From the IMG/VR virus record IMGVR_UViG_3300033144_002959, positions 29,709 to 93,708 of that record: 64,000 bases of DNA. One strand, given 5' to 3'. Shown here piece after piece: positions 9,355 through 61,145 of the stretch. The stretch comes from a virus. Below the pieces are notes generated by a model. That model did not search any database. It was given only the letters and a program-made list of their open reading frames with translations, and had not been told where the DNA came from. Position numbers and translations under genes: made by a program. Each line of letters opens with the position of its first letter. The first letter of the stretch is position 1.

Positions 9355-9890
9355 TACCTATACCCCGTTGCAATAATCGTCATACGATCTGTTTCACCGA
9401 ACACTTCCTCAACGCCGTGCTCGCACCAACCATCCAGTACAACTGTCGTTCCCAACTCTGGCGTAACTCGACCTTTCTCGGTAACTGCATCGTCCTCAAA
9501 GACCACCGTATCGCCACCAGAATCAGGCAGCTGTACGTAATGCACGCACGTCAAACCATCCCACTGGTGATTGTGTGGAAAGCCTTTGGCCCAGCCCACT
9601 CGATTACTCACGTGGCCGGGGTGCACCATGCCAGTCCAGTACCGCCATTTCGCTTCGTCGTATTTGTAATCGACTGCATCCAAACAATCCCGGTAATGTT
9701 GCTTCAACTCTTCCGGTAATTTATTTCTATCAACGTCTCTCGCCGACGTGTTGTTGTCCACCGCATTGTCACGAACTACTTCCCGCAACAACTCAAGCGG
9801 AGACTCAGAGAAATCAAATACTTCCAGTACCGGAAAACAATCATCCGGTCTCCTGTGCCCAGTACCCATCGCAACTATTTCGTTCACCAT
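9354..9890 (-). CDS. 2OG-Fe(II) oxygenase-like protein (HxH type), paralogue of 8803-9354
   Basis: PHNHQWD...VHYVQLPDSGG...TPELG...HGV...DRMT. ORF track starts at 10043; ATG at 9890 chosen to avoid overlap with upstream gene. Confidence 0.8.
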   Translation of the reverse strand: MVNEIVAMGTGHRRPDDCFPVLEVFDFSESPLELLREVVRDNAVDNNTSARDVDRNKLPEELKQHYRDCLDAVDYKYDEAKWRYWTGMVHPGHVSNRVGWAKGFPHNHQWDGLTCVHYVQLPDSGGDTVVFEDDAVTEKGRVTPELGTTVVLDGWCEHGVEEVFGETDRMTIIATGYR

Positions 9891-9900
9891 CCAAGCTCTC

Positions 9901-10341
9901 TCACGTGTACGTAAAGCCCAAGCGGTCATCCCAGACTTTGTCAAAATCCGAAGTACCTCCGGCCCAGCGAAATTCAAAATCATCTTGACCGTCACCACCA
10001 GTAATGACATCGATCTTTTGAATGCGCCATGCGTTCGTGGCATCTAATGTCCCCGGCTGAGCCTGACCCTTGTAGATCACTGCTTCACCAACAAAATCAA
10101 CTCTCGTTGCAAATGGCACATCACTCTCCGCTGCGGGGCCTTGAACACCAACGTCGGATATAATAACGCTTCCGTCCTCGGCCTCGATAACCGTAGTCGT
10201 TTGTTCAACAGAAATTACTTCGGAATCATCCGGCTGGACAACTACCGTGGTCTCATCAACCTGCGTAATAACATCAGCAGCATCAACGTCATTGACGACA
10301 ACACTGCCATCGTCGTTGACAATTACTTGAAACTGAGCCAT
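9901..10341 (-). CDS. Putative virion protein
   Basis: 146 aa; V/D/T-rich N-terminal repeats, GVQGP, then IYKGQAQPG...AWRIQK...VWDDR module typical of phage late genes. Confidence 0.6.
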   Translation of the reverse strand: MAQFQVIVNDDGSVVVNDVDAADVITQVDETTVVVQPDDSEVISVEQTTTVIEAEDGSVIISDVGVQGPAAESDVPFATRVDFVGEAVIYKGQAQPGTLDATNAWRIQKIDVITGGDGQDDFEFRWAGGTSDFDKVWDDRLGFTYT

Positions 10342-36197: not shown

Positions 36198-37786
36198 CCG
36201 CTCGGTCCATTAAATTCCGCAATTAGCCCATCCATGAATTCCATAAAGTCTGGTCTCGTAATCCCCTCGGCGTTTTCGACCATTTCAGCAAACATCGCTT
36301 TAGCTGTGGGATCGTTTGGATTCATTTCCCGCCACACTACGTAAATGTCATGATTGATTTTCTTTACTTCTATAGAGATTGGGGTGTGAAACTGGACTTC
36401 AATCTGCAACCCTTGCGGCGTTATCAGGTTGACATTTACGCCCTTATACTCCGGGCGCGAATCCCACGTGGATTCGAAGGAAGCGTTTTTGTAGCCCAAG
36501 TTTCTGAACCTTTCCATCACAGCCCGAATATCATTTACGTAATCCTCCGGCTCAGCCAGAAACGTGTACCGCAATGAGTCCGATATTCTCGCTGCCGCTT
36601 GCTCTTCAGTGACCCCGTACTTTTCCATCTGATTGCGAATCTTGCGCCTCGTGGACTTCAAATCCTTCAAGCGGTTATAGATCAACGTTCCGTCTTCAAT
36701 CGTTACAAGCCCATCGATACCGGGAAACTGCATTTCTTTAGAAGGAAAATCCATATCCAGTTCATCAGCCAGTCGAACCACGTCTCCAGTAACCGTGCTA
36801 TCAGACTCCCTCGCCAGTGCGACCATATCCCTTGCCAATGCAGCGACTAATTTTTCCTGCTCTGCGGGGGTAAACTCTTCACCCGGCAGCTCTACTATAT
36901 TTTCATTGATCGGTGTGACGTCGGCTGGCTGAGTCACCGTAACCGTTCCCGCTTTCACAATCACGCCCCGACACAATGGGTGAAATGGTGGCGTATCCCA
37001 ACCCTTATCCTGAACCTGAGATTTCGTCATCTGAGCAAGCTGGGCAACAGACTTCTCATCCTGCTTCGGCCAAGGAGCCACAGATTTCATGTCATCAGGA
37101 TTCGTTGTGGACATCCAGTTTTCCAGCTTGGCCTGCGCCTGCGGAACATCGAACGTGCGCCCGTGCATAGTCCGACATACTGGACAGGTCCGCCCATCGA
37201 GACGTTCATTGATCTGGAATTTACTGATACCTCTTGAAGTCGCCTCTACGGTGTACCCCCAGCTGGCCAGTCGTGACGTATGCAAACTTGAACCGATATC
37301 AATAAACGACTTCCCATTTTGGTTAACGCTACTGACAAACTCTTGCGGAAACCCCGGCGTTGCATCTTTTTTAACCGTCGCATCTTGCTGATCCGCCCGC
37401 TCACGTCCCAACATTTCAACAGCCAACCGGCACACAGACTGGGTCGCGTTTTCTTCCATCATAATGACCAGATTATTCGCCGCCAGCTTTATCTCTTCCG
37501 GCCTGCCAGTCTCCATGAATATAGATTTTCTCGGGTCACGGCTTAACCGGCTGGCCCCAAACAACACCGCTTGCATACCAATAAATTCAGCAAACCTACG
37601 GTTGTCTTCCGCCGCTTTGGCCAGACTAAACCCTTCACACAGATCAACAGCCGCAGCGAAATCGCCTGCGTTTACCAGCTCAAGCACTTCTCGGGTAAGG
37701 GTGGCAATATCACCGCGCCACGAATTTTGGATTCGGTTGCTGAGTGATTGTTCTAAGACTAAAAAACTTTTAATGCTGACAGTCAT
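36194..37786 (-). CDS. MuF minor head protein fused to RelA/SpoT-like alarmone synthetase domain
   Basis: MuF: LDGRTCPVCRTMHG and PPFHPLCR. C-terminus: RLKDLKSTRRKI, SDSLRY, YKGVN, IEVQFHT, HDIY (SYN1-4-like). Confidence 0.85.
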   Translation of the reverse strand: MTVSIKSFLVLEQSLSNRIQNSWRGDIATLTREVLELVNAGDFAAAVDLCEGFSLAKAAEDNRRFAEFIGMQAVLFGASRLSRDPRKSIFMETGRPEEIKLAANNLVIMMEENATQSVCRLAVEMLGRERADQQDATVKKDATPGFPQEFVSSVNQNGKSFIDIGSSLHTSRLASWGYTVEATSRGISKFQINERLDGRTCPVCRTMHGRTFDVPQAQAKLENWMSTTNPDDMKSVAPWPKQDEKSVAQLAQMTKSQVQDKGWDTPPFHPLCRGVIVKAGTVTVTQPADVTPINENIVELPGEEFTPAEQEKLVAALARDMVALARESDSTVTGDVVRLADELDMDFPSKEMQFPGIDGLVTIEDGTLIYNRLKDLKSTRRKIRNQMEKYGVTEEQAAARISDSLRYTFLAEPEDYVNDIRAVMERFRNLGYKNASFESTWDSRPEYKGVNVNLITPQGLQIEVQFHTPISIEVKKINHDIYVVWREMNPNDPTAKAMFAEMVENAEGITRPDFMEFMDGLIAEFNGPSG

Positions 37787-39629
37787 CGGGACGCTCAGCT
37801 ATAGAACTGGCAGCTCCGACAAGTTCAACAGCCCCGATCATGTCATGATCCACAGCGGACATCATTTTCAGAGTGCAATACCCATCAAACCGTTGTCGCG
37901 TAACTGCATCCATCCGTTCAATAGTGGTCCGCATTAACTCAGTTTCGGTTGCGGATACTTCGTTAGTCAACTGTGCTCGGCACCATTGGCCAACCAAGTC
38001 CATCATATCGAACGTATCCATCGCTTCCTTGCGCGACGGGGGGGTCGCTGGCTGCGAGGTGTTAGGCGGATTCTCAACGCCTGCCGTGAGTGCTGGCGCT
38101 GGCTCACCGACCGGTGCCACTATAACCGGAGGTTCAGGCTCTTCCGGCTCGCTGTCATCTGGTACCAGTGTCATACCAACAATCTCATTGACTGCTCCGA
38201 CTCTGGTCTCTCTCGACAAGTCTTCGGCCACGATACCCAGCGCTTCCAACTTGGTCTGCACGTCATCAACCGTCAACGGTAGTGACCTGAAAATAAACTC
38301 ACCTTCAGGGTCCAGTTCGCGCATGATCGTGTTGTTGATTATCTCATCGAACTCATCGCGCTCTGGTTGAAACACTTGCGCCTCGGTCACCGTGTAACTG
38401 GCAAACGCAGTTGCGAAACTGTAGTCCTGCGCTTTGCCCACAAAGATAGGGGGCAAGCGGAATGACGAACGCACACGCTCTTCACATCGAGCATCGTAAT
38501 TCTCAAACATCGAATCCTGAATACGCTCAGAACCAAAACGCTCTACCGTCACACGCACGGTACCGGGCTTATCCAATGAGCCTCCCGACGCAGCCACTTC
38601 GACAATGCCTGCCCGGTGATAGCTCGATCCCTTGCCCGACATATATTGCTGCAACTGCTTACGCACTTCGGGGGTCAACTCACCGCCCTGAATGATAATC
38701 AGCGCCGGAGGCAAGCCGCCGCTATTAAAGAAATCCAGATTCAACTCTTCGGCTTTACGGCTACCCAGTACGCTCGGAATCTGATTGATCCAACGTGGCA
38801 CACCGTAAGGAGTTTTCGCATCCTCATACACTGTGAAATACAGCACTTCGGTTGCCCGGTCTTTTATGTCCAGCTTTTCCTCACTCCATTCCCCGGTGAG
38901 TCTATTCAGCTCGCGGCTCGCGCCGTACTCTTTGAAGTAAATCACCCGCTTGCTAATGATCTGAGCGAACCGCCGCTCTCGAACATTCATCACAACTTCC
39001 ATTTCCTGACCGTCGCGCTGCACTTTCTGCTCAACCAATACGGGTTCATCCAGCTTCACCAGCCGCATTTGATGCGCCGGGATATGCTTCAGAAACATCA
39101 GCTCACCATCGATTGAACGCAGCACTTCCATGAATGCGTAGCCGACCTGCTCCAGATCGCGCCGGGTCTCGCGCCTCAATGTGGTGAATGACGTGCGGGG
39201 AAACGGTTCCTTGAACCAGTCTTCCAGCTTTTCTTTCTCTGGATCATTTTTAGGTTCGTCGTTCTCTTCGGCTTCATCATCCCTTTCTATTTCCCAGCCG
39301 GTGCCATCGATATTGACTTCCATTGCAGCAATCATCTGGCCCAGCGTATTATTGCGCTGGCACAGCATGGTCAATTGCTGGGGCTGAAACGGGGGGCGCA
39401 GCACTTGCGCCTCGGGATCATTCTTACGGGGGTCGAAAAAGAATGCTTCAAACGCATCGTCTTTTTCCAACTGACTACCAGCCAGCACTGCCTTATCCTG
39501 CTTCGACACGGTACCGGTTTTTACAACGGTCATGTGCGATGCAGGATCGCCCTGCACACCCATCGCGTTACCGAGAGACACGACTTTAGTACTCGGCCCC
39601 TCTCCATCACCCTTGTATATGATTGACAT
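37770..39629 (-). CDS. Portal protein (PBSX/P2-like)
   Basis: DLEQVGYAFMEV.R, YGVPRW, FFNSGGLP, FRLPPIFVG, VFQPER; ATG at 39629. Confidence 0.9.
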   Translation of the reverse strand: MSIIYKGDGEGPSTKVVSLGNAMGVQGDPASHMTVVKTGTVSKQDKAVLAGSQLEKDDAFEAFFFDPRKNDPEAQVLRPPFQPQQLTMLCQRNNTLGQMIAAMEVNIDGTGWEIERDDEAEENDEPKNDPEKEKLEDWFKEPFPRTSFTTLRRETRRDLEQVGYAFMEVLRSIDGELMFLKHIPAHQMRLVKLDEPVLVEQKVQRDGQEMEVVMNVRERRFAQIISKRVIYFKEYGASRELNRLTGEWSEEKLDIKDRATEVLYFTVYEDAKTPYGVPRWINQIPSVLGSRKAEELNLDFFNSGGLPPALIIIQGGELTPEVRKQLQQYMSGKGSSYHRAGIVEVAASGGSLDKPGTVRVTVERFGSERIQDSMFENYDARCEERVRSSFRLPPIFVGKAQDYSFATAFASYTVTEAQVFQPERDEFDEIINNTIMRELDPEGEFIFRSLPLTVDDVQTKLEALGIVAEDLSRETRVGAVNEIVGMTLVPDDSEPEEPEPPVIVAPVGEPAPALTAGVENPPNTSQPATPPSRKEAMDTFDMMDLVGQWCRAQLTNEVSATETELMRTTIERMDAVTRQRFDGYCTLKMMSAVDHDMIGAVELVGAASSIAERPDDCQH

Positions 39630-39635
39630 GCGTCC

Positions 39636-39651
39636 GTCCAATTGATTGGAT
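39636..39651. promoter_or_regulatory. 16-bp palindromic site, copy 4 (1 mismatch)
   Basis: GTCCAATTGATTGGAT between the putative -10 box and the portal ATG. Confidence 0.75.
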
Positions 39652-40751: not shown

Positions 40752-40936
40752 ATAAACCCCTTTTCTGTTGCCACACTATCGTACAACTCAATCTTCGCAC
40801 TGCATCCCGGCTCCAGATCATCCTCCTGATCCAACACCTGACTCAACGGAATCCAGACCCGCTCGGTTTCAAACTCGACCAGCACCGCTTTCTCAGTCCG
40901 GTGCACCACGTGTATATCAATCCAGTGCGTCATCAT
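40748..40936 (-). CDS. Small beta-barrel phage protein
   Basis: TEKAVLV...VWIPLSQ motif; coupled to polymerase stop. Confidence 0.6.
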   Translation of the reverse strand: MMTHWIDIHVVHRTEKAVLVEFETERVWIPLSQVLDQEDDLEPGCSAKIELYDSVATEKGFI

Positions 40937-43251
40937 AATGGTAACTTCACAGTCTCTGCCAAATTGTTTAATCCGAACTCTACATCAACCGGGAAATCCA
41001 ACTGCGGTTTCCAACCGAATGCCCCCAACGGTAAATTCTCCATGACCTCTTTGATACGCCCAGCCCATTCCATATACTCATCCTCGGGCACGTAAAAACT
41101 CAAGCTGTCATGCGTGAACCCAAACATCCAAAGGTCTGGGTAACGCTTGTCCAGCTCTGCCATTGCCAGCAAACCCATGTCTGTCAACGTGGCCTGCACT
41201 CCAGTGTTCACTGCCTGCCGTTCACTCTGTGCCCGGATATCCTGCGCCCATGATTTGATCAATGGCAAATGTCTGATTCGACCCAGCGGAGACTCAATGT
41301 ATTTATGCTTACGGGCAAACGCTTTGGTCTCGTCATGCCACGGATGCAGCCGATCATACAGCCCAAAAAACGATTCTATGAATGCGTATGCTTCTTTGAG
41401 AGTCAGCGTCACCCCAAAAGATTTCTGTGCATAGTCCACAAAACCTTCCGCGCCCATCGTATAAATCAATCCGAAGTTTCCAGCTTTGCCCCCCTGCCTG
41501 ATATCAGCAATTGCCGGGTGTTTGATCGAAACCATTTCCATTGCTTCGGCCAGCTCCAGCCCATTCAACTGGGCACCGGTTTTCAAATGTAGATCGACGC
41601 CATCCTTGTACGATTGAATCATCGTCGGCTCATCAGCAATGCAGGCCACGATCCGTAACTCGCCCTGAGAGAAATCGACGTCCAGAATCACATAGCCTTC
41701 AGGCGGCACGTACACGCTTCTAAGCGGCTTTGCCCAGTCGGTATGCTTGGGTATCGTTTGGTACGCAGGTTCCTTTACAGACGTTCTCCCGGTACGTCCG
41801 CCGCTGTCATCAGCCTTTGTATCGTCGCCATGAAACAATCCACGAAAAAGCATATAGCTCGGGTGGAAACGGTCATCTGATCGCACGTGTTTCATGAACC
41901 CATCGATGTACGTGCTCTTAGTTTTGCTCGCCTTACTAAATTCCAGTAGCGCCGCAATGAATGGCCCAGCTGTTTTGTGTGTCTTGAACAATTCGAAGTG
42001 CGCCGCAGCTGTGCTCGGCTTGCCGGTCTTCGGCGTCATTATCTTTGGGGTGAGATTCAATCCCTGCCGAGTGAACAGAAAATCGGATACGATCTTTGGG
42101 CGACTGGGTCTCAGGTCTCGATAATGTTTATGCCGCAACGTGTACGGCAACATTTCAATCATAGCTTCCTGATTCGTTTCCAGAACCTGACTCACTTCCT
42201 CATCAAGTTCGTGGTACCGCTTCATGTCCACTACCATGCCGCGTTGTTCCATCTTGCGCACCGCATGTTGTGCCGGGTGCAGCAGCTTCTGATAGAACCG
42301 CAACAGCCGTGGTTGCTTGATCAACTGGCCACGCATCTTTTGTGCTACCTGAAGGCCAGCATCGGTATCGCCCCCAGCGTATTGAATGATGTCCGACTTC
42401 GGCACCAAATCCATTCGCGACTTATCGTACTTACGATTGAATTCGTCGTCATACCCGCCCATGCCCGTGTAAACTTTCGTGTGCAGGTTCAGGCTGTTGC
42501 TGCGGTTCTCTTGCAGCAACGATCCGACCAGTGTGGTGTCCAGTTTGAACGCACTGAAATCGTGAATGTCCCACTTACGCTCCAACCATAACGCATCGTA
42601 TTTGAAATTCGCGCCGTACAATTTAACCTCATTGCTAGAGCACAAGTAATCCAGCCACACCAATTCCTGCGCATCAGGCCAGCCAGCCTTATCGAAATAC
42701 ATGACGTAAGATTCACTCGGTGTAATCGTCAAACTCACTGCGACTATGTAAGCATCCGGGTCCATGTAATCCGTACCGACTGTTTCCAAATCAAGCGATA
42801 TCGGTACTGCCTTACCAGACAATTTGTAAGCTGCCTGAATCGTCTTCACGGGTTCCGCGAAACTCGTAACCTCTTTGTACACTCCGACAACCGGGTTCAA
42901 TGTTCCCTCGGTCATCAAGCGCATCGCGAGTTTCATATCCCAGAAGATTTCAGGACGTCTGGCGTAATCAAAAAAGGCCAGACTCGCGTCCCACGTCACG
43001 AGATACTGACCTGTATCTTTGCCAAGAATCACCCCACGCATACTGGTGATCGCTCGATTCTTCGGGGCGAACCCACGGGTCGCGAGTTCCTTGAGATTGT
43101 CTTTTCCGAATGCGAGACACACGTCTTTCGTCCCCATCTTTGTCGGAAACTTAGACACGCATTTATAAATGACCCCGGATTTTATAAGCCGGGGCCTGAC
43201 TAATTCTTTGAACGATTTGTCGTCGTAGTTAGCCCACGCTATTAGGGTCAA
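40933..43251 (-). CDS. polA: DNA polymerase family A with 3'-5' exonuclease
   Basis: ExoI LDLET, ExoII NFKYD, ExoIII YAGGD; motif A DFSQGELR, B RQGGKAGNFGLIY, C THDS. TTG start at 43251 after CATGGAGG (ORF track 43284). Confidence 0.95.
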   Translation of the reverse strand: MTLIAWANYDDKSFKELVRPRLIKSGVIYKCVSKFPTKMGTKDVCLAFGKDNLKELATRGFAPKNRAITSMRGVILGKDTGQYLVTWDASLAFFDYARRPEIFWDMKLAMRLMTEGTLNPVVGVYKEVTSFAEPVKTIQAAYKLSGKAVPISLDLETVGTDYMDPDAYIVAVSLTITPSESYVMYFDKAGWPDAQELVWLDYLCSSNEVKLYGANFKYDALWLERKWDIHDFSAFKLDTTLVGSLLQENRSNSLNLHTKVYTGMGGYDDEFNRKYDKSRMDLVPKSDIIQYAGGDTDAGLQVAQKMRGQLIKQPRLLRFYQKLLHPAQHAVRKMEQRGMVVDMKRYHELDEEVSQVLETNQEAMIEMLPYTLRHKHYRDLRPSRPKIVSDFLFTRQGLNLTPKIMTPKTGKPSTAAAHFELFKTHKTAGPFIAALLEFSKASKTKSTYIDGFMKHVRSDDRFHPSYMLFRGLFHGDDTKADDSGGRTGRTSVKEPAYQTIPKHTDWAKPLRSVYVPPEGYVILDVDFSQGELRIVACIADEPTMIQSYKDGVDLHLKTGAQLNGLELAEAMEMVSIKHPAIADIRQGGKAGNFGLIYTMGAEGFVDYAQKSFGVTLTLKEAYAFIESFFGLYDRLHPWHDETKAFARKHKYIESPLGRIRHLPLIKSWAQDIRAQSERQAVNTGVQATLTDMGLLAMAELDKRYPDLWMFGFTHDSLSFYVPEDEYMEWAGRIKEVMENLPLGAFGWKPQLDFPVDVEFGLNNLAETVKLPL

Positions 43252-43660
43252 CGACCTTCCTCCATGTTGCCTCAGCGGGATCACATTCCCACTTTCGGAC
43301 TACTCCTGAGTGTACCCGACTCGACGCTTGTAGAAAAGTTTTCACTGACTTAAATATCTCCGGCATTTTATAGTCCACTTTCGATCCATCGATCAGCATG
43401 ATATACGCCGGAACGTCCAGTCCGAAAAACACCAACATCAGATACAGGTCTCCGCGCACGTGCACGACCAGTGCAGATTGATTGCCTTTCTTTTTGTGCA
43501 TTGCTGCCACAATTTCCATCGGGCAACTCATTCGCATTGTCGGCACCATCGGTACCGACAGAGTGCCTTTACCTTTGACCGTACGCGCAGTCACACGTAA
43601 GTGCATTTTCAGCGCGTCCGCCATCCAGTACGAATGTTCTTTTGGTAACAGTTGATTCAT
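43229..43660 (-). CDS. Hypothetical protein
   Basis: ATGA-coupled to upstream ORF. Confidence 0.55.
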   Translation of the reverse strand: MNQLLPKEHSYWMADALKMHLRVTARTVKGKGTLSVPMVPTMRMSCPMEIVAAMHKKKGNQSALVVHVRGDLYLMLVFFGLDVPAYIMLIDGSKVDYKMPEIFKSVKTFLQASSRVHSGVVRKWECDPAEATWRKVVDPNSVG

Positions 43661-43950
43661 GTGATCGCCTTCCATTCGACTTTGTTTTTGTTTAGTTCAG
43701 TGGCACGAATCCGGCCCATCAAAACTCCGAGGTACGTCAGATCAAAATCAACCACCGCGAATTCTGTCCTGACCCCTTTACCCGTGTCCCCTTCCAGCCT
43801 AATGCCAGTAATCGCATTCGTTGCAGTCCAAACAATTTCCTCATTTTCGTCCAGACCGGGAAACGGATTACCGGTTGTTATCTGGTCGCCCTTTTCGAAT
43901 TTCCTAAGTGCAGTTGCATCCATGTCAAATACCTTACGTCCCTTCGCCAT
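43657..43950 (-). CDS. Hypothetical protein
   Basis: 97 aa, overlaps neighbours. Confidence 0.6.
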   Translation of the reverse strand: MAKGRKVFDMDATALRKFEKGDQITTGNPFPGLDENEEIVWTATNAITGIRLEGDTGKGVRTEFAVVDFDLTYLGVLMGRIRATELNKNKVEWKAIT

Positions 43951-44929
43951 TGATCACCCCAAGGTCAGGCATCGGAGTTTCAAATTCCAACCCTGTGCCC
44001 ATCAGTACCGCGCCCAGTGCTCGCTTCGCAATCAGCTCTTCAATGCCATTGAAGTGCACCGACGTGTACCCTTTTTGTATGTAGTCTTCATTGAATCCTG
44101 CCGCGACCAGCGGGTCTTTATGTTTGCCAACCGGCCCCTCGACTCGGATACTCAAATTCGAATTGCTCACCCATCGGGCAGCGAACTTTAGTTTCCCGGC
44201 AATGCCAATGCAGTGATACGTACTGGAATCACTCGTGGCTTTAACCGGCTGATACATCGTTGTCGCCTGCGACAGTTTCACCTTATCCATTTTCAGCGCA
44301 ACGTCTTTGTCCGTTGGAAATACTTCACTCACTTTCGGGCCGTGCACAATCTCATCTTTATCAGGGAACACGGTCACTTCATCGGACTGGTTGAACTGAG
44401 TGTCAACCAAATTTCCTAATTCAACCTGTCCCTTAATAAACGCAGTCCCCTCCATGCTCTCTTCGGCCTCAACGTCATCCAGCATTGCCGATGCCATGTG
44501 CTCTTTGAATACTTTGCCCTCGACAAATTCGCTTGAACTGATCGTGCCAATCTTGGGGCCGGTCTTCTCACCTTCCGCAGCCAACTGGTCAAGGTCTTTC
44601 CAGACTGCCGCTACTGACCCGGTTTTCTTCAGAGGCTTTTTCTTCAACTGTTTCAAGCAAATCGAAAGGGCACCGTTTATTTTCTTCGCCACTTCCTCTT
44701 GTGCAGCAACAGGCAAAATACCTTCCTTTGCCATTTTCAATATGCCGGATTTGATCGGCATATCTTTGACGATGCCATACTCGTGGTTACCGAACTCCAG
44801 CTTGGTGCCTGCGACATTAGCCTTACAGATAACGTCGTAATTTTTCAGTGACGATACCTGTTCAATAGACAACCCGAGACCGAACCATGCGTCCAGTTTC
44901 TCGGGGGTGTATTTGAAACTCAGTGCCAT
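43934..44929 (-). CDS. Hypothetical protein
   Basis: About 331 aa with own promoter and GACATGGAGGC RBS. Confidence 0.75.
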   Translation of the reverse strand: MALSFKYTPEKLDAWFGLGLSIEQVSSLKNYDVICKANVAGTKLEFGNHEYGIVKDMPIKSGILKMAKEGILPVAAQEEVAKKINGALSICLKQLKKKPLKKTGSVAAVWKDLDQLAAEGEKTGPKIGTISSSEFVEGKVFKEHMASAMLDDVEAEESMEGTAFIKGQVELGNLVDTQFNQSDEVTVFPDKDEIVHGPKVSEVFPTDKDVALKMDKVKLSQATTMYQPVKATSDSSTYHCIGIAGKLKFAARWVSNSNLSIRVEGPVGKHKDPLVAAGFNEDYIQKGYTSVHFNGIEELIAKRALGAVLMGTGLEFETPMPDLGVINGEGT

Positions 44930-44956
44930 CAATTGCCTCCATGTCTGTATATAATC

Positions 44957-44985
44957 ATTGTGCCTGATTGATGCACGTCTGTCAA
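44957..44985 (-). promoter_or_regulatory. Sigma70-like promoter
   Basis: TTGACA-gacgtgcatcaatcagg(17)-CACAAT. Confidence 0.7.
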
Positions 44986-44989
44986 ACTC

Positions 44990-45685
44990 TCACTTGACAT
45001 CAAGATCACCGAAAATACAGTGCTTCGCATTAACCGGATTGATCATTGCTTGCATCGCTTTGGTTGTTGTCCCAATCTTTTTTTTGCTGCCGAAAACCTT
45101 CGCGCCCTTGACTTCTTTACAGGCAAAATATTTCATTAAGAATTTGACCTGCGTCGTGGACTCGACCGCTTTCTTACAATAGTTTTTGCGTACATACGTG
45201 ATCGCATCAGGCTCATCAGTCATCACCGCGACCAATGCACTGAGCACAATCCCGGTTCTGCCGTGGCCTCCAATGCAACCAATGTGCACCTTCTGACCGT
45301 CACGAATCTGATCGGCCAACCAAGCAATCAACTCTATAAATTCATCGGAGTCTTTCGGCACCGACATATCTTTGATTTCATAATGAATAGCATGACCGTG
45401 CGCCCACGGAAACCGCTGCTTATGCTGCTTCATGCCGTAATCAAGACCAACGTAAATGTCAGCGTCATTGTGGATTGGGTATGAGCACGATCCGCCAAAC
45501 ACGAACCGGGTTCCACCTTCTGACAAATTCAATTCCAATGGTGGGTGACTTTCATAACAGCGTTTGAATTCGCCCCACTTGGTTTTTGATTTCGATTTCT
45601 GTGACTCCCACGTGGACGCAGCAGTCGAATCCCAATCGGGAGTCGAACTAATCGCCACAACTTTTCCTGATTTTTTAGTAGTCAC
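44990..45685 (-). CDS. Cys-based (PTP/DSP-like) phosphatase
   Basis: VHIGCIGGHGRTG (CX5R), IKDMSVP (WPD-loop equivalent), AVESTTQ. Confidence 0.88.
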   Translation of the reverse strand: MTTKKSGKVVAISSTPDWDSTAASTWESQKSKSKTKWGEFKRCYESHPPLELNLSEGGTRFVFGGSCSYPIHNDADIYVGLDYGMKQHKQRFPWAHGHAIHYEIKDMSVPKDSDEFIELIAWLADQIRDGQKVHIGCIGGHGRTGIVLSALVAVMTDEPDAITYVRKNYCKKAVESTTQVKFLMKYFACKEVKGAKVFGSKKKIGTTTKAMQAMINPVNAKHCIFGDLDVK

Positions 45686-46730
45686 GTGCCTTCACCGCCT
45701 TTTTAATTTTCACTCCGGGCATCACTTCGAAATACAACTTCTCGTGTGCCGCCTTTTTCGCCGCCGCTGCATCCTTCGCCGCCGCAACTTTCTCCAGCAC
45801 CGCTGCATTGGCAGCTTTGAATTTTGGATCGTTACCGAACTTTTGCATGTTCGCTGACTTATACTGATCGTATGTTTGAACCGCACCCAACGCTTCAACA
45901 ACGTCCCAGTCAACCCAACTGTCGTACTCTGTTTTTAGCAATGTCTCCATCGAGAACAGATCGCCCGAATGCGTATTTTGCACGTGTGTGCAAAACGGTG
46001 ACCCGGACTTAATGAGGTTTGGAATTTGCCCAGCTCTTTGGCAATCCAAAATCGTGTACAACTGGAATGCGTCATAGTGCGTGAACTGAAATCCTTTGTT
46101 AAAAATTGGCCCATTGTTATGCGCCAATGCGTAACCAATATCGAGCATCATTTCAACGCTGATTTTTCCGTTCACAGTATCGCGTATCGCTTCGGTGACA
46201 CTGCCCCACGGCTTGCCGCCATAACTCGATGACCAGCTCAACGTGTTAAATACGTCAACCAAATAATCCAGATACGGTCCCAACTTCAGATCACCACTGT
46301 AATTAAACAGAGCCTTCTGAGCACCGGACTTCACTTTTTTCGTAAAGTCCGCACACTGCGAACCATGTTTTTGGATCAACTGGTCTTCTTGCACATTCGT
46401 CAAATGCCGTGACTCACGAGTTGTCGTGATCAGAATGTACTGGAACAATCGCGACCCAGCGGAATTCAAAACTTCGTGGAATCGTTCAACCAATGGCAGC
46501 TTACTGCCCAATGGTTCATCGGGATCGTGCGCAGCTTCAATCTCACCCATCGCGTGCTGCAACAGATAAAATTCAAGCGCCTCGCTCTCAGGGCTTTTCT
46601 GCCCTGCCGAGTTAAGGTTCGCTTTCGCAGTCTTCCCGGCAACCGATAAAGGTACCTGCGACAAATCACGCGCCATCGTACCGGGGCGCTCACTCTTGTG
46701 GTATGCAATTGTGTCGTAATCGTGAATCAT
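45675..46730 (-). CDS. Hypothetical protein with RESRH / YGGKPW / HNNG motifs
   Basis: 351 aa from ATG 46730 with GACATGGAGGC RBS and own promoter; lies between two phosphatases. Confidence 0.75.
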   Translation of the reverse strand: MIHDYDTIAYHKSERPGTMARDLSQVPLSVAGKTAKANLNSAGQKSPESEALEFYLLQHAMGEIEAAHDPDEPLGSKLPLVERFHEVLNSAGSRLFQYILITTTRESRHLTNVQEDQLIQKHGSQCADFTKKVKSGAQKALFNYSGDLKLGPYLDYLVDVFNTLSWSSSYGGKPWGSVTEAIRDTVNGKISVEMMLDIGYALAHNNGPIFNKGFQFTHYDAFQLYTILDCQRAGQIPNLIKSGSPFCTHVQNTHSGDLFSMETLLKTEYDSWVDWDVVEALGAVQTYDQYKSANMQKFGNDPKFKAANAAVLEKVAAAKDAAAAKKAAHEKLYFEVMPGVKIKKAVKARDY

Positions 46731-46752
46731 CAAGCCTCCATGTCTTACCTTT

Positions 46753-46781
46753 AGTATGCCTGCGTGAACCGCGTTTGTCAA
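46753..46781 (-). promoter_or_regulatory. Sigma70-like promoter
   Basis: TTGACA-aacgcggttcacgcagg(17)-CATACT. Confidence 0.7.
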
Positions 46782-46783
46782 AT

Positions 46784-47338
46784 CTACTTATACGATCTGA
46801 CTATTTTCGCTAACCGTTTGACATCGAAATCTCGCACAAACTCTTCCTGTGCTTTTGTCTCGACAGCTTCCGGGCGATACATTGCACGGGCCTTACTAAC
46901 GTAATCGACCGTTCGAAAATCCCACCATCGCCGGGTCGATTCGTGCGCCACCTTAATCAGCAGTGCCACAAATAATCCTGTCCTGCCTCTGCCCCAACCG
47001 CAGCCCACAAACGGAATCAAACCGCCCTTCATCAGCACAATCGTGCTCAGCAAAGCGCTCTCAACCAGCTTCGTATTAGGGATGCCGAAATCTTTGATCG
47101 GACAATCGACCATGTACTTTGCTTTCATTTCCGCAGCCAACTTAATGCCGGGACTATCCTTCGGCTTCTCACTGTACGGCCCAGCCATAACCGGGGACAC
47201 ACCCCACGGAAATAGAATACCAAACGCTATTGTCTCAACCGCTGGGTGTCCAATTGATTGGACGCCTGCAAAATCGAACACGTCATCGTCTTCGATTTGG
47301 TATTCGATATCCACGTTATAGTTTTTCTTTTCTGACAC
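46784..47338 (-). CDS. Cys-based (PTP/DSP-like) phosphatase
   Basis: FVGCGWGRGRTG (CX5R), IKDFGIP, AVETKAQEEFV; GTG start at 47338 after CACGGAGG (ORF track 47437). Confidence 0.88.
   Translation of the reverse strand: MSEKKNYNVDIEYQIEDDDVFDFAGVQSIGHPAVETIAFGILFPWGVSPVMAGPYSEKPKDSPGIKLAAEMKAKYMVDCPIKDFGIPNTKLVESALLSTIVLMKGGLIPFVGCGWGRGRTGLFVALLIKVAHESTRRWWDFRTVDYVSKARAMYRPEAVETKAQEEFVRDFDVKRLAKIVRSYK
47248..47263. promoter_or_regulatory. 16-bp palindromic site, copy 5
   Basis: Exact GTCCAATTGATTGGAC inside the 5' part of the phosphatase gene. Confidence 0.75.
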
Positions 47339-47342
47339 TGCG

Positions 47343-47777
47343 CTACCTCCGTGCTTTGTGTCTGTTATTCGTATTTCCATTTTGCCTGCGTGACGCACGT
47401 TTGTCAACGCCGCTACAATCGGGGCATGGCCACTCACGCCTGTGTGAATTCTCGCACTCCGAAAGTTCGCAGTGCCCGTTGCAACTTACGCAAGCCTCAT
47501 ACACGACAAATTTCCGCGTATCGTCACAGCTCACACAATCCGGCTCATAAAAACTCAGGGACTCAAGCCTATTACGGTTCACCGTCAACAGCAGGTCGCC
47601 ATAGCGACGATTGCCCTCTGGGTGGGTGATGGGAGCGCTTAAATACACGGCCTCCCTGAGCCACGTCAGAGCGTCTGAGCCATCCTGCAAATCCATGTCT
47701 CGGACCCAGCCCAACAAACTCAACGGGATACTAATCCCCTGATTTTGCTGCTTTCTTTTTCCGATATACAACGCCAC
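47343..47777 (-). CDS. Hypothetical protein with CxxC zinc-finger repeats
   Basis: CVSC, CVSC.G, CPDCSG motifs. Confidence 0.65.
   Translation of the reverse strand: MALYIGKRKQQNQGISIPLSLLGWVRDMDLQDGSDALTWLREAVYLSAPITHPEGNRRYGDLLLTVNRNRLESLSFYEPDCVSCDDTRKFVVYEACVSCNGHCELSECENSHRREWPCPDCSGVDKRASRRQNGNTNNRHKARR
47379..47407 (-). promoter_or_regulatory. Sigma70-like promoter
   Basis: TTGACA-aacgtgcgtcacgcagg(17)-CAAAAT. Confidence 0.7.
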
Positions 47778-48045
47778 GATCTACTTTTATCCTCCGTGGT
47801 GCTTCGACAACCACCTTGACTCCATGCCGTTTAATATCTGCACCTGTTCCGGCACTCACCCTGACCTGCGGCAAAATTTCCGACGCACGTCGATCAGTAA
47901 CTTCATGCACCGTATGCAGGGCTGGCTGAAAAACTTTCAGATGGAAATTAAATTCGTGCCGAATATCGTGCAAAACCACGCGCACGTCGTCAACATAAAA
48001 ATCGTTGTACGGTTCATCGGGGTAAAGTTCCAATACCAATCCCAT
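47731..48045 (-). CDS. CsrA/RsmA-like RNA-binding protein (extended)
   Basis: GVKVVVEAPRRIKVDRGVVYRK resembles CsrA [22 protein letters not shown]; N-terminus MGLVLE resembles CsrA beta-1. Confidence 0.6.
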   Translation of the reverse strand: MGLVLELYPDEPYNDFYVDDVRVVLHDIRHEFNFHLKVFQPALHTVHEVTDRRASEILPQVRVSAGTGADIKRHGVKVVVEAPRRIKVDRGVVYRKKKAAKSGD

Positions 48046-48505
48046 CGTCTTCCTCCGTGTTCACGCTGATACTCAGCGCTGTTAATGCTCGCCGGGTTAC
48101 TCTCCATATGGAGCCACCCTTTGTACCGGGCCGAGCCTCTACCCGTTCGATCAAACCTTTGTGCATCAATACGATCAACTGACTACTCACGTCCGACGTA
48201 TTCTGGCCACTCACCCCGCACAAGTCCCGAGTCGTTACAGTCTTCGGGTACAACGATGCGACATGCCCTAAGCACTTTTTGAGTTTCGTACCCTGTTCAG
48301 GCATTCGAAACTCTTCCTTTTTCTGAGTGTGTATGCGGAAACCACCATCAGTAGTTTTCGCATAAACATAACGATGCAGTCCGCAAATGCAACGCTGAAT
48401 AATATCCATGTCCGTGATTTCGTACCAAGCATTGCCATGACATTTCGGGCACTCATCCCGTTCGTTCATCACTCGCGGTTGCTTTCGTACGATCCGTACA
48501 GCCAT
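48014..48505 (-). CDS. Zn-ribbon plus winged-helix DNA-binding protein
   Basis: CPKC...CICG, then VTTRDL...TSDVSSQLIVLMHKGLIERV...WRVT. Confidence 0.7.
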   Translation of the reverse strand: MAVRIVRKQPRVMNERDECPKCHGNAWYEITDMDIIQRCICGLHRYVYAKTTDGGFRIHTQKKEEFRMPEQGTKLKKCLGHVASLYPKTVTTRDLCGVSGQNTSDVSSQLIVLMHKGLIERVEARPGTKGGSIWRVTRRALTALSISVNTEEDDGIGIGTLPR

Positions 48506-48511
48506 ATACCC

Positions 48512-50650
48512 TCACTTGAACACGTCAAATACCAAGCGATTTTTGGATACAGCCTTTGGCTTTACCCGCACCGGAGTACCGGCTTTCTCCATCATTTCGA
48601 ACAGCTTAGTCGCGACGTGCTCGCCTCCGATTTCTTTGGCGAACCCTTCATCAATCTCGACTATACCATCGCTTTCAAGTAATTCCTCAATTGTTTCAAC
48701 ACGTGACACCACCTTCCAACCCGCATCACGTAATTTGTTGACCTGATCTGGCGTCGAAAAACTAGACGGAACTATGATCACTTTTTCTTTCAGTTTCTGC
48801 CAATTCAAATTCATCAACGCCTTTATTCGATCATGCGTTTCCGCTTCATTGACCGAATTGTTAGGTGGCCCAACCAGATTCCAAAGCATCTTGTCGGCAT
48901 CCAACCTGTTCTCTCCGGGCAACGTCAAATCAATGTAGCACTCAACAATATCGGTGTCGGCTTCCGCCTTCATCAGAAATTGTGTGAACTGTCCAAGGTC
49001 TGATCCCCCGGTCGCAATGTATCGATTGTCCAGCACCTTGCTATCGTGCGACGTCTTGACCATAACCTTATCGGTCGCATCAATCGCCCAACCTAAAACA
49101 GTTTTCGCGTAATCGTCAACGTCGCCTTTCGTAAGCACCAACGGTTGTAACCAGACTTTACCGCTGGCACCGTCAATCGTAATCTTTGGCCAACCAGATA
49201 TCTCCGGCAAGTCTATGCAACCAACAACACAATGTTTTTCAAGTGATCGCCCGACAACCGCTGCATGACTGGTCGCTCCCCCGGTTCGTGTCAGGATGCC
49301 GACACTCGCTGCCATGCCCCCAAAATCTTCTGGCGTCGTTTCATCCGTGACCAGTATCACCGGCTTATCCGCACCGAGCATCTTAGCTTCCTCAGCACTG
49401 GTAACAACGCTACCAACAACCAGACCACCACCAGCGGCGATACCCTGATAATCCGGCTCAGGAACTTCGCCCTTGATCCGAACTTTTTTCATTGCCATGT
49501 ACTGCTTGGCGCTAACTCGACTGACCGCTTCCTCTTTGGAAATCAATCCGCCCTTCGCCATGTCATGTGCAATTCTGAATGCTGCCTTGCCGCTTCGCTT
49601 GCCAACTCTGCACTGGAGCATCCAAAGTTTACCGTCTTCAACAGTGAACTCGATATCCATCATTTCTTTGTAATGCTTCTCAAGCGTCATGGCGATATCA
49701 TCCAGTTCTTTCGCAATGTCCGCATTCCAAACAGCCATGCCCGTTAAATCGAGCGGAGTAGTAGTGCCAGCAACAACGTCTTCGCCCTGAGCGTTCACAA
49801 GGAACTCACCCATCATTGCGTTTTTGCCTGTTGCTGGGTCGCGAGTAAACGCAACACCGGAACATGACTCATCGTTCATGTTGCCATACACCATCATTTG
49901 AATGTTGACCGCAGTACCCAAGTCATTATCCATGTCGTGCAACTCCCGGTATTCTTTCGCTCGCTTGCTGTCCCACGAGTTGAACACCGCAGTAATCGAT
50001 CCGATCAACTGATCACGCAAGGTGTCGGGAAAGTCGGTGCCAAATCGTTTCGCGTAATGCGTCTCAAACTTAATAACCGCTTTGGTCAAATGCTTGACAC
50101 TCTTCACCGTCTCCGCATCGGAACTCGGTGACGATTTCAAATTATATTTGTAGCCCTTGATGAAATCCCACAACTGACCGAACCCATGCAAGCCCTTAAC
50201 CGTTGTGGCGTACTGAGAAATCTGACGACGTCTGCAATCAAGCGCTGAGCATTCGCCCAGTCGCGATTTCCAGTCATCAAGATTGTCGGACGTCAGCCCG
50301 ATATTCAACAGGGTATCCATCATACCCGGCATCGAAAACTTACCGCCAGATCGCACAGAAAACAGCGGCTCATAGCCAACCGTCTTCGTGATTTTTTCCA
50401 GCGCCGGAAGCACATACTTATCAACTAACATTTCGACATACTTATTTTTTTCAAAGTTGCCGGTCATGTCGTTTCGATATGAATTACATGCCAGTGTCGG
50501 AATCGTGATCCCGTAAGGTACAGGCATACCCAGCTTGGCCATTTCAGCAAGGTTCGCGCCCTTGCCACCAAGCAGGTCTGACATTGAAGCATCGCCTTCG
50601 GTGAAACCATTCACCGAACCGAATTGATAAATTACTTGACCTTCTGCCAT
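48512..50650 (-). CDS. Pyruvate phosphate dikinase-like protein lacking the pyruvate-binding barrel
   Basis: GGKGANLAEM, SVRSG..SMPGMMDT, NAQGEDVVAG, DIEFT, GGATSHAAVV present; 712 aa; canonical C-terminal motifs not seen. Confidence 0.9.
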   Translation of the reverse strand: MAEGQVIYQFGSVNGFTEGDASMSDLLGGKGANLAEMAKLGMPVPYGITIPTLACNSYRNDMTGNFEKNKYVEMLVDKYVLPALEKITKTVGYEPLFSVRSGGKFSMPGMMDTLLNIGLTSDNLDDWKSRLGECSALDCRRRQISQYATTVKGLHGFGQLWDFIKGYKYNLKSSPSSDAETVKSVKHLTKAVIKFETHYAKRFGTDFPDTLRDQLIGSITAVFNSWDSKRAKEYRELHDMDNDLGTAVNIQMMVYGNMNDESCSGVAFTRDPATGKNAMMGEFLVNAQGEDVVAGTTTPLDLTGMAVWNADIAKELDDIAMTLEKHYKEMMDIEFTVEDGKLWMLQCRVGKRSGKAAFRIAHDMAKGGLISKEEAVSRVSAKQYMAMKKVRIKGEVPEPDYQGIAAGGGLVVGSVVTSAEEAKMLGADKPVILVTDETTPEDFGGMAASVGILTRTGGATSHAAVVGRSLEKHCVVGCIDLPEISGWPKITIDGASGKVWLQPLVLTKGDVDDYAKTVLGWAIDATDKVMVKTSHDSKVLDNRYIATGGSDLGQFTQFLMKAEADTDIVECYIDLTLPGENRLDADKMLWNLVGPPNNSVNEAETHDRIKALMNLNWQKLKEKVIIVPSSFSTPDQVNKLRDAGWKVVSRVETIEELLESDGIVEIDEGFAKEIGGEHVATKLFEMMEKAGTPVRVKPKAVSKNRLVFDVFK

Positions 50651-50677
50651 TTATGCCTCCCTGTCTTTGGTACCCTC

Positions 50678-50706
50678 ATTGTCTCAAACGTGGGTACGTT
50701 TGTCAA
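50678..50706 (-). promoter_or_regulatory. Sigma70-like promoter of the dikinase gene
   Basis: TTGACA-aacgtacccacgtttga(17)-GACAAT. Confidence 0.7.
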
Positions 50707-50894
50707 ATTCTATTGATCGTCGCACCCAGCCCCTCGGCTACCTCGACCAGTGTAGAAATTTCCAACTCACTGAAACCATCAATCTCAACATGCACCTGAC
50801 TGTCTTCAGTCCACCAAATGTATTTGTCGAGTACAGCTTCCTCAATGAACAGCGCCTCATTCGTGTTACTCGGAAAGAAGATATTCAGTTGCAT
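50703..50894 (-). CDS. Hypothetical protein
   Basis: 63 aa from ATG 50894. Confidence 0.45.
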   Translation of the reverse strand: MQLNIFFPSNTNEALFIEEAVLDKYIWWTEDSQVHVEIDGFSELEISTLVEVAEGLGATINRI

Positions 50895-51417
50895 ACCCAG
50901 CGTACCCCGCAAAGTTATCCAACGTCACGATGTCCAGTTTGAAATGCGTGTCCGTCTTATTCAAAACCTCGCGCCATTTTGTTGTGCGAAGTATATTCAA
51001 TCGTTTCGTCGGTGCCGGAATTTCATACGGCGTCGTGCCTTGGATACCGTAGCGCAAAACATCGTACGCCTCAACCGATCCTTCGCCCTGCTCAAGCGCA
51101 ATGAACACCGTCCGATAGTGCGGAAATACTCGGATGATTGACGTCCAGTCTCCGGCCCTCTCGCTGAAACCCACAGCTGCCTGATATGTCGAGTGCAAGT
51201 AGTTGAATGCGTCCCGCAATTTTACTTCGTGCCGACTACTCACGTTCATATGTTTTCGAATCGCTTCCTGAGTGGTCGTATCGATCACCATTGCGTTCAC
51301 AACTTCACGGATTTTCTCGCGGTTAAATTGCACCAGCTGATCGTGATAATAAATCAGCCCGTTCCACGTGCTCGCGGAATTCGGTGCTTTCAATGCTTGG
51401 GTCAAATCGTATTTCAA
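50866..51417 (-). CDS. Hypothetical protein
   Basis: 183 aa, TTG start with CACGGAGG RBS. Confidence 0.65.
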   Translation of the reverse strand: MKYDLTQALKAPNSASTWNGLIYYHDQLVQFNREKIREVVNAMVIDTTTQEAIRKHMNVSSRHEVKLRDAFNYLHSTYQAAVGFSERAGDWTSIIRVFPHYRTVFIALEQGEGSVEAYDVLRYGIQGTTPYEIPAPTKRLNILRTTKWREVLNKTDTHFKLDIVTLDNFAGYAGYATEYLLSE

Positions 51418-51434
51418 TCTAGCCTCCGTGACTA

Positions 51435-52040
51435 TTACTCTACTATTGCATAGTGAAACCGCTTTGTCAAATAGACTTTATGCTCATTTGAATCCAGCGC
51501 CATCCACAGCTTGTAATCCCTATCGAAATATCGGTGCACTGCTTGCAACAACTCAGTGTCGTAAAAATCAGGCCAGTGATAATAACCATGCTGCGGTTTG
51601 TAAGGCATTTTCATCGACACCCCGAGCCAGTCCGACAAAGCCCCTTTCGCCAACCACTGCATACGCTCAAGCTGCCCGACCCATATCAGACCATCGGCAC
51701 CACTCAAATGCCCAGCAAGTTCGTTCGTCTGTGGCCGGATATGAGCATTAAAGCTGTCAGGGTCTTGGGCCAATACCCACCGGCACCACTCTGGGAAATC
51801 GACGTGCGGCCCAAACTTCGATATACCGTCGAGAGTAGATGTCTCAATCTTTGGCCTAACAAGATGATTCCAACACGACACCAACCTGTGTGCTGGGTTA
51901 CGGACCACGGTCACATAACGATGTTCAGGAAACTGGTGTGGCCCCCAATGCTTTCCTGCGAACGCCTTTCGAATATTCGATGACCCGCACTTCATCAATC
52001 CAATAGCTGTGACTGCTCCGCATTCTATGGGGACTGACAC
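51435..52040 (-). CDS. Sulfotransferase family 2-like protein
   Basis: MKCGSSNI (5'-PSB), VVRNPAHRLVSCW (3'-PB), HIRPQ, VGQLE, FYD...YFDRDY. Confidence 0.82.
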   Translation of the reverse strand: MSVPIECGAVTAIGLMKCGSSNIRKAFAGKHWGPHQFPEHRYVTVVRNPAHRLVSCWNHLVRPKIETSTLDGISKFGPHVDFPEWCRWVLAQDPDSFNAHIRPQTNELAGHLSGADGLIWVGQLERMQWLAKGALSDWLGVSMKMPYKPQHGYYHWPDFYDTELLQAVHRYFDRDYKLWMALDSNEHKVYLTKRFHYAIVE

Positions 52041-60707: not shown

Positions 60708-60736
60708 ACCTTAATGTGTTTGGTCTGGTTTGTCAA
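60708..60736 (-). promoter_or_regulatory. Sigma70-like promoter
   Basis: TTGACA-aaccagaccaaacacat(17)-TAAGGT. Confidence 0.6.
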
Positions 60737-61145
60737 ATGGAGGATCGATCATTTCCAGAGCGATCTTGTACTTCGCAGCCAGCTTCGGTGGCGGAGCATT
60801 CCCAAGGTTCACCATCAGATCGGCGCTCTTCACGAACACGGCCAAATCGTTTTTCCTGACCCTGTCTATATATTCGAAATACGTCTCGTCTTCCCTTTTG
60901 GTAATCGCGTCAACTGCCTCAACGATCACATCGTCAAAGAACAATCTCAGGCCATCAAGGGTGACTTCCGTATCCTCAACCACATCATGCAAATAGGCCA
61001 CAGTCACTTGTGCGTCCGTTGCCCCGGTAGCCTTAACCAGCGTAGCAACCTCTTCGACATGCCTCTCAAAATAAGGCTTGCCCTTATAAAGTTTCCCGGT
61101 CCCATCATGCGCCAGCTTGGCAATAAATGCCGCTTTCAATTTCAT
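60711..61145 (-). CDS. Small alarmone hydrolase-like HD-domain protein (Mesh1/SAH-like)
   Basis: LAH, KPYFERH, YLHDVVEDT, VDAITK, VKSAD..N. Confidence 0.85.
   Translation of the reverse strand: MKLKAAFIAKLAHDGTGKLYKGKPYFERHVEEVATLVKATGATDAQVTVAYLHDVVEDTEVTLDGLRLFFDDVIVEAVDAITKREDETYFEYIDRVRKNDLAVFVKSADLMVNLGNAPPPKLAAKYKIALEMIDPPFDKPDQTH

Follow-up and report, generated by a model that had tools for sequence, protein, structure and literature searches.

A PPDK-derived dikinase linked to a pair of cysteine phosphatases and a protein of new fold in siphoviruses: a candidate phosphoryl-transfer module

The DNA analyzed here (the window), positions 29,709 to 93,708, makes up the right-hand 64 kb of the IMG/VR virus record IMGVR_UViG_3300033144_002959, a complete viral genome of 93,708 bp with direct terminal repeats of 114 bp. 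The window carries a cassette, all genes of which lie on the minus strand, that encodes a 712-residue protein similar to pyruvate phosphate dikinase (PPDK), two cysteine-based phosphatases, PTP-A and PTP-B, and a 351-residue protein of new fold. The reading that we favor, and which we consider probable rather than secure, is that the cassette would be an ATP-driven multi-protein phosphoryl-transfer module, derived from PPDK, that does not act as a phosphoenolpyruvate (PEP)/pyruvate enzyme. With considerably more confidence we propose that a single substrate system is common to the four genes and that it is other than pyruvate/PEP.

The dikinase gene (48512-50650, minus strand) has kept the two N-terminal modules of PPDK, as an initial annotation made from the sequence had proposed. 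The Pfam scan matched only two families, PPDK_N (1.2e-48) and, over residues 428-497, PEP-utilizers (1.9e-19). Residues 1-385 (49496..50650) correspond to a PPDK-type ATP-grasp nucleotide-binding domain and residues 390-505 (49136..49483) to the swivel phospho-His carrier domain, where the motif GGATSHAA occupies residues 457-464 and makes His462 the carrier histidine. Among 71 relatives the ATP-site residues K30, R100, E334, Q346 and R348 were invariant, as were H462, T454, G457 and G458 of the swivel domain. The profile of these relatives matched the solved PPDKs of the PDB at about 1e-210 over residues 1-535, and in the same search the swivel domain of Enzyme I was matched at E-values of 1e-8 to 1e-12. 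The AlphaFold2 model of the dikinase had a predicted local distance difference test score (pLDDT) of 90.8. In structural alignments with VIA its swivel domain was superimposed on the carrier domain 2fm4 with a Z of 15.2, a root-mean-square deviation (rmsd) of 2.0 and 114 aligned residues. From the conserved residues and domains we infer that the engine which transfers phosphate from ATP to the histidine is intact. Dikinase homologues with N-terminal extensions contained no additional Pfam domain. In a metagenomic homologue of 1159 residues (P0218) the swivel match was split, with weak LAGLIDADG and homing-endonuclease matches between the halves, which points to an intein within this dikinase.

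The remainder of the protein differs from PPDK. The Pfam scan yielded no PEP-utilizers_C match and the pyruvate-site motifs RTEH, TNDL and CGE were not found in the 712-residue protein, in agreement with the earlier statement that they are missing after about residue 500. The sole cysteine beyond residue 478, C571, is not conserved. On the other hand, the view that the pyruvate domain itself is absent had to be given up, because residues 526 to 712, approximately, model as a compact beta/alpha domain. The C-terminal part was aligned by VIA with unrelated TIM barrels, namely 3h7v (Z 9.2, rmsd 4.2, 145 residues aligned), 4ph6 (Z 8.5, rmsd 5.3, 165 aligned) and 6lkc (Z 8.4, rmsd 4.9, 148 aligned). 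Because Z values of 8.4 to 9.2 are barely above the range that VIA rates as common, the assignment of this domain as a barrel is moderate and not firm. Alignment of the whole chain with the PPDK of C. symbiosum (1kbl) gave a Z of 45.8 with an rmsd of 7.2 over 664 residues and extended up to chain residue 865. When the C-terminal profile was compared with canonical barrels by hhalign, the probability was 1.6% and the segment of the first Arg motif was missing. The 71 relatives had not a single invariant column beyond W500, and the mean column conservation of the C-terminal domain was 0.30 compared with 0.50-0.65 in the other domains. We concluded that the C-terminal pyruvate domain has decayed and shrunken and has not been deleted; the corresponding DNA, residues 506-712 with the stop codon, is 48512..49135, and this poorly conserved, barrel-like beta/alpha domain had TIM-barrel matches and no Pfam match.

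The linkage of the dikinase to its partners was examined in 80 loci fetched from IMG/VR and scored with custom profiles, where a short-dikinase locus with at least 4.5 kb downstream was regarded as informative. PTP-A, the 351-residue protein and PTP-B were found in this order and on the same strand at 59 of 59 informative short-dikinase loci, and the CX5R motif was intact in both phosphatases at all 59. Canonical PPDK loci (875-901 residues), in contrast, carried no partner gene in any of 11 cases. In a reverse search via the 351-residue protein, ten of ten contigs from bacterial genomes or metagenome-assembled genomes contained the dikinase and PTP-A, and nine of them PTP-B. The linkage to the phosphatases and to the 351-residue gene, as initially proposed, was thus borne out in both directions. 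Cultured-phage records were matched by the dikinase (59 records), the 351-residue protein (40) and PTP-B (38). Those with the 351-residue protein and PTP-B are siphoviruses of Vibrio, Stenotrophomonas, Rhizobium and Rhodobacter with genomes of 80-100 kb, and the PPDK and phosphatase annotations that the initial annotation mentioned for marine Vibrio siphoviruses were found among the cultured-phage records. In Rhodobacter phage RcZahn and Rhizobium phage TM16 the gene order is that of the window. About 19 records matched the dikinase without a match to the 351-residue protein; the two examined, MT835511.1 and OR846604.1, are unverified, encode a canonical PPDK of 881 residues without partners and look like bacterial contigs that inflate the counts of viral PPDK. 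A copy of the module was seen in a 5-Mb chromosome, OZ001190.1 (L091:3732-8044), with a much weaker dikinase match (2e-70, 629 residues); PTP-B is missing from this copy, which may be a prophage in decay.

These data bear on the view that the gene is a genuine PPDK, an auxiliary metabolic gene which boosts host energy metabolism by interconverting PEP and pyruvate and whose neighbors are unrelated. We find this view hardly tenable. It has in its favor the annotation of the gene in many records and the explicit argument made for phage vB_VneS_J26 (PMC12038007), where the structural overlap with PPDK comprised residues 1-527 only and PEP binding was still modelled. The similarity to PPDK (EC 2.7.9.1; C. 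symbiosum 1KBL/1DIK, maize 1VBG) in sequence and fold is indeed strong over residues 1-535, with about 30-32% identity and with the ATP-grasp domain, the swivel domain, the domain order and the catalytic residues alike, and even the C-terminal domain is still barrel-like. Yet this domain comprises about 200 residues, whereas that of PPDK has about 340; it lacks all PEP/pyruvate motifs and the Mg ligand motifs, its profile is unrelated to that of the canonical barrel and it is without an invariant residue. The score of the phage protein against the PPDK equivalog TIGR01828 was 478 bits with a cut-off of 843.45, and the match was limited to residues 6-538. Finally, unlike PPDK, the short form is encoded with the two phosphatases and the new-fold protein at every informative locus. 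PEP/pyruvate chemistry by the 712-residue protein is therefore very unlikely, and the initial view that it is not a canonical enzyme of this kind gained support.

The conserved block extends beyond the cassette. Clustering of open reading frames (ORFs) gave the order dikinase, one to two small paralogues, PTP-A, 351-residue protein, PTP-B, 332-residue family, small ORF, basic protein of about 140 residues, DNA polymerase A and portal, and in 58 loci DNA polymerase A lay on the downstream side of the cassette. Of the initial delineation of the module, the set of dikinase, phosphatases and 351-residue gene was retained, but its limits were not, for the fixed block reaches DNA polymerase A. At the nucleotide level, a megablast search of the phage collection with this region revealed no relatives. 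The gene arrangement is far beyond chance. It would nevertheless be compatible with mere neighbors in a conserved backbone that have separate, unrelated roles, because across the lineage synteny extends from the dikinase to the polymerase and portal, and the order may be inherited and not selected. We judge this to be improbable: the order has outlasted divergence to 30-37% identity, while the side upstream of the dikinase varies freely among loci, and the genes overlap or abut.

The two phosphatases flank the gene of the 351-residue protein, as had been noted at the outset, and all three genes are at most 3.5 kb from the dikinase stop codon. PTP-A (46784..47437, minus strand) is of the dual-specificity phosphatase (DSP) type with the P-loop CGWGRGR. 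It matched Pfam PTP-SAK at 7.7e-7 with 29.7 bits, above the cut-off of 27, while its matches in the PDB were marginal. PTP-B (44990..45685, minus strand), with the P-loop CIGGHGR, matched Pfam Tc-R-P at 9.3e-6 with 26.6 bits against a cut-off of 27 and, in addition, PTP-SAK, Y_phosphatase and DSPc. In a phmmer search of the PDB PTP-B was nearest to the small archaeal phosphatases Tk-PTP and SsoPTP (3.5e-7; range to 9e-6). D116, P120, C146, R152, T153, E193 and Q197 were invariant in 56 PTP-A sequences. In PTP-B D106, P110 and C137 were invariant and R143, T144, E175 and Q179 were kept at 98%. Both classes keep a DxxxP motif whose Asp is invariant and lies about 30 residues ahead of the likewise invariant Cys; the loop reads G-C-x-x-G-x-G-R-T-G, and a Glu/Gln pair is located downstream of it. 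Such features of cysteine phosphatases go with hydrolysis of phosphomonoesters through a thiophosphate intermediate, and judged by their conserved residues both enzymes look hydrolytically competent.

SsoPTP (2I6I) and Tk-PTP (5Z59) share with the phage phosphatases the minimal DSP-like fold, the general-acid Asp, the CX5R(T) P-loop and the downstream Gln. The phage enzymes differ from them by extra N-terminal regions, and that of PTP-B carries a conserved Cys/His set. Outside of the P-loop of PTP-B, C43 and H47 are conserved at 98%, C67 at 88% and C170 at 98%; these residues could form a metal site. The phosphatases and the small ORFs of the block are basic with a median isoelectric point (pI) of 9.1. 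The phosphatase family phrog_17568 and GenBank records of DLP3, DLP5, SIO-2 and other phages are labelled 'thymidylate synthase', which appears to be a propagated annotation error on a cysteine phosphatase family.

One dikinase combined with two DSP-type phosphatases is also the logic of starch metabolism in plants, where the phosphate esters made by glucan water dikinase (GWD) are removed again by the dual-specificity phosphatases SEX4 and LSF2. A corresponding glycan phosphorylation cycle in the infected cell could be directed at host glycogen or a polysaccharide precursor, and the general-acid Asp of DSPs is kept in both phage phosphatases. Still, the phage set departs from the plant system in several respects, and we consider such a cycle very improbable. 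Domain order and sequence assign the dikinase to the lineage of PPDK and not of GWD, and the block is located among replication genes. No carbohydrate-binding module (CBM45, CBM20 or CBM48) was detected in the cassette proteins with Pfam and NCBIfam at E <= 0.01, a search that divergent modules can escape. Furthermore, the 351-residue protein matches neither a glycoside hydrolase nor an (alpha/alpha)6 fold.

The 351-residue protein (45675..46730, minus strand) belongs to phrog_20946 (PHROG match 7e-61). AlphaFold2 predicted an all-helical structure with a pLDDT of 94.3 and a predicted template modelling score (pTM) of 0.88. A large protein collection contained 72 relatives, none of them with a Pfam domain. 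Foldseek found no match of the model in the PDB (best E 0.64), VIA-align revealed no solved fold among 48,161 chains (best Z 4.5), the profile of the family matched nothing among PDB sequences, the ESM Atlas provided no usable match and the matches in BFVD were members of the protein's own family only. The family has 19 invariant columns including E106, R108, H109, D197, H204, N205, K212, D229 and Q231, and R232 is conserved in 90% or more of its members. This polar set has the look of a pocket for catalysis or phosphate binding. No fusion of the 351-residue protein with the dikinase was present among proteins of 1004-2865 residues, the range of 615-1004 being outside the search. The long homologues P0035, P0037 and P0080 have extensions without a phosphatase motif.

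A PPDK derivative without pyruvate chemistry has been characterized in mycobacteria. VadK (M. tuberculosis Rv1127c), a PPDK in truncated form, uses ATP and Mg to phosphorylate its own His422 and has methylcitrate-cycle enzymes as interaction partners (PMC13400623). The targets proposed for it are others than pyruvate. ATP/Mg-dependent phosphorylation of the histidine is known in VadK and predicted for the phage protein. VadK, however, has 490 residues and two domains, whereas the phage protein possesses an extra domain of about 200 residues, and its score with NF004531 (PRK05878), the model of the short actinobacterial, VadK-type family of two-domain proteins with about 490-530 residues, was 374.8 bits and therefore below the cut-off of 456. 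Neither PTP-type phosphatases nor the 351-residue family are reported alongside VadK. Hence VadK is the nearest characterized design, but by score and architecture the phage protein is not a member of its family.

With VadK as a precedent the cassette might encode a regulatory protein kinase, where His-P is passed on to a host or phage protein, possibly the 351-residue protein, and the phosphatases erase the mark in a switch for host takeover or timing. In line with this, VadK as a truncated PPDK phosphorylates itself and binds metabolic enzymes, the swivel domain is shared with Enzyme I of the phosphotransferase system, the closest relatives of the phosphatases are small protein tyrosine phosphatases and the 351-residue protein has two invariant His. 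We regard the protein kinase as unlikely, as the phage dikinase missed the VadK-type model and, unlike VadK, retained a third domain. Moreover, neither an HPr-like carrier nor an HPr-binding subdomain was found, and the invariant set of the 351-residue protein resembles a catalytic pocket and not a single acceptor residue.

The ATP-grasp and swivel-His modules are reused in rifampin phosphotransferase (RPH), GWD, phenylphosphate synthase, HpeHI and PigC/RedH with hydroxyl or enol acceptors. In RPH, PpsAB and HpeHI the hydroxyl acceptor is on a different domain or subunit. The models of HpeHI and PigC/RedH were among the matches of the dikinase in the NCBIfam scan, and structural matches in the group of RPH and two-component dikinases were 5hv1 (Z 25.1, rmsd 2.5, 242 residues aligned) and 9goj (Z 19.3, rmsd 5.1, 241 aligned). 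Yet the swivel domain of RPH is C-terminal, unlike that of the phage dikinase, the sequence similarity of this group is far below that of PPDK and the phage dikinase has no homologue of the acceptor domains of RPH, PpsAB or HpeHI. By the established mechanism of the PEP-utilizing family, His462 of the phage enzyme would be loaded from ATP and then discharge to a non-pyruvate acceptor. The acceptor-switched relatives all phosphorylate hydroxyl or enol oxygens. As in several of these a subunit of its own carries the acceptor, the 351-residue protein is a reasonable acceptor-side partner, a role that we assign to it tentatively.

Domain content, motif loss, conserved catalytic residues and strict linkage were observed directly, and from these we infer every chemical step of the phosphoryl-transfer module that we favor. 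The ATP-grasp domain would pyrophosphorylate His462, the gamma-phosphate would go to phosphate or water and His-P would be left, as in PPDK and PEP synthase. Then the swivel domain would hand the phosphate of His-P to the non-pyruvate acceptor, likeliest a hydroxyl group. The acceptor site would no longer be the canonical barrel pocket and may be formed by the decayed barrel, by the 351-residue protein or by both. The phosphatases, finally, might strip the phosphate installed by the dikinase as a reset or editing step, or their substrate might be a phosphorylated precursor or product along the same pathway. In the initial annotation the phosphatases reverse or balance the dikinase; the pathway reading fits equally well.

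As to the target, a nucleic acid or nucleotide, in end processing or DNA modification, is weakly favored over a protein, glycan or metabolite and is nonetheless doubtful. The preference is based on the adjacency of the polymerase, the basic phosphatases and small proteins and the restriction-resistant DNA of DLP3 and DLP5; the DNA of these two phages resists restriction enzymes (PMC7326821, PMC8228603). A more specific and rather unlikely version is a new nucleic-acid chemistry, in which the dikinase and the 351-residue protein would phosphorylate a hydroxyl group, be it of DNA, of RNA or of a nucleotide. The phosphorylation would be a step of end processing, or it would supply the activated leaving group needed for a new kind of DNA modification, and the two phosphatases would trim unreacted or precursor phosphates. 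If true, this would account for the attachment of the block to the phage DNA polymerase. A literature search found no paper that ties such a dikinase to phage DNA modification.

Several points weigh against the module as we picture it. The linked loci probably represent one broad siphovirus lineage, so that their counts are not independent and could in part reflect synteny. In the C-terminal domain acidic and Gly positions at strand ends are moderately kept (D586 89%, D574 73%, G675 85%), and the decayed barrel might hold an acceptor site of its own, with the 351-residue protein then in another role. Many unrelated phages of S. maltophilia are reported to resist restriction as well, and the trait is not specific to the cassette (PMC8228603). 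No gene for a ThyA-like hydroxymethylase, a C5-methyltransferase or TGT/DpdA was found in the complete 93.7-kb genome, while positive controls were matched. RtcB was rejected as a consistent partner, as it occurs widely in phages of other kinds and its distribution does not follow that of the cassette.

Two other candidates were dismissed. The known routes of base modification (thymidine, cytosine or deazaguanine) were rejected since the genome has no gene for a precursor-making enzyme, and for a defence system the PADLOC models gave noise only. A full-length RtcB RNA ligase is encoded outside the window (L085:16707-17897; Pfam 9.9e-121).

The genome is of the siphovirus type with head and tail genes at low window coordinates, and nearly all genes of the window are on the minus strand. 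Beyond the window the genome carries the genes for RecA, helicases, primase, RuvC, DnaB, an AAA ATPase and RtcB. Three small ORFs, all on the minus strand, separate the dikinase gene from PTP-A. The first of them encodes a basic protein of 163 residues with a pI of 9.4 (48014..48505), whose family is present in 14 loci, a subset of the relatives, and which had only a weak winged-helix-type Pfam match (B-block_TFIIIC, 9e-4, below cut-off). The other two encode paralogues of 104 residues (47731..48045) and 144 residues (47343..47777), which fall into one cluster with 62 members in 43 loci. The smaller one has counterparts in RcZahn and TM16, and its matches to CsrA were weak and below cut-off. 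Further downstream the stop of the 351-residue gene and the start of PTP-B overlap by 11 nt.

PTP-B is followed by the gene of a 332-residue protein (43934..44932, minus strand), a member of the conserved block whose family was found in 50 loci, always after PTP-B. It shares 46% identity across 114 residues with gp12 of RcZahn; it had no Pfam or NCBIfam match and its Atlas model was of low confidence. Two small ORFs of 97 and 148 residues (43229..43950, minus strand; pI of the 148-residue protein 9.4) lie between this gene and the polymerase. Neither had a family match in Pfam or NCBIfam, and most loci carry a protein of 135-160 residues at this position. The polymerase (40933..43284, minus strand) is of family A with a 3'-5' exonuclease domain (DNA_pol_A 4.7e-62, DNA_pol_A_exo1 1.6e-8), and the portal gene is at 37770-39641.

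Upstream of the dikinase start a promoter-like site was seen at 50678..50706 on the minus strand, with TTGACA, a spacer of 17 nt, GACAAT and a TG before the -10 element. Perfect -35 hexamers were also present at 47407, 46781 and 44985 on the minus strand. Altogether five promoter-like sites with a perfect TTGACA and a 17-nt spacer are located at 44957-51470 on this strand; they precede a sulfotransferase-like gene, the dikinase, PTP-A (inside its annotated 5' end), the 351-residue gene and the 332-residue gene. Their positions suggest four putative transcription units within the block, although the total of promoter-like sites was not above that of shuffled sequence (13 vs 9.7 ± 3.5). Because one site sits inside the 5' end of the ORF, the true start of PTP-A is uncertain.

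Just upstream of the cassette region an ORF of 201 residues (51435-52040) matched Sulfotransfer_2 at 5.8e-7 with 30.3 bits, the cut-off being 22. Elsewhere in the window two adjacent ORFs among the virion genes (8803-10043) had weak matches to 2OG-Fe(II) oxygenases below cut-off (2e-4 and 3e-3), and an ORF of 132 residues beside them had no match. The 144-residue ORF at 60711-61145, a possible alarmone hydrolase according to the initial annotation, matched HD_4 exactly at the gathering score of 27.2 bits.

Dozens of phage papers and records list the dikinase gene as a PPDK auxiliary gene of carbon metabolism. The evidence presented here contradicts this label, and the mislabelling bears on ecological claims that viruses reprogram host glycolysis. 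Beside mycobacterial VadK the phage dikinase is a second natural case of a PPDK repurposed after the loss of pyruvate chemistry. The module would join a well-understood phosphate-carrier engine with a confidently folded protein of new fold and two apparently active phosphatases, and it spans phages of Vibrio, Stenotrophomonas, Rhizobium and Rhodobacter as well as of many uncultured hosts. Its cultured, tractable members, DLP3/DLP5, SIO-2 and RcZahn, allow a direct search for the substrate.

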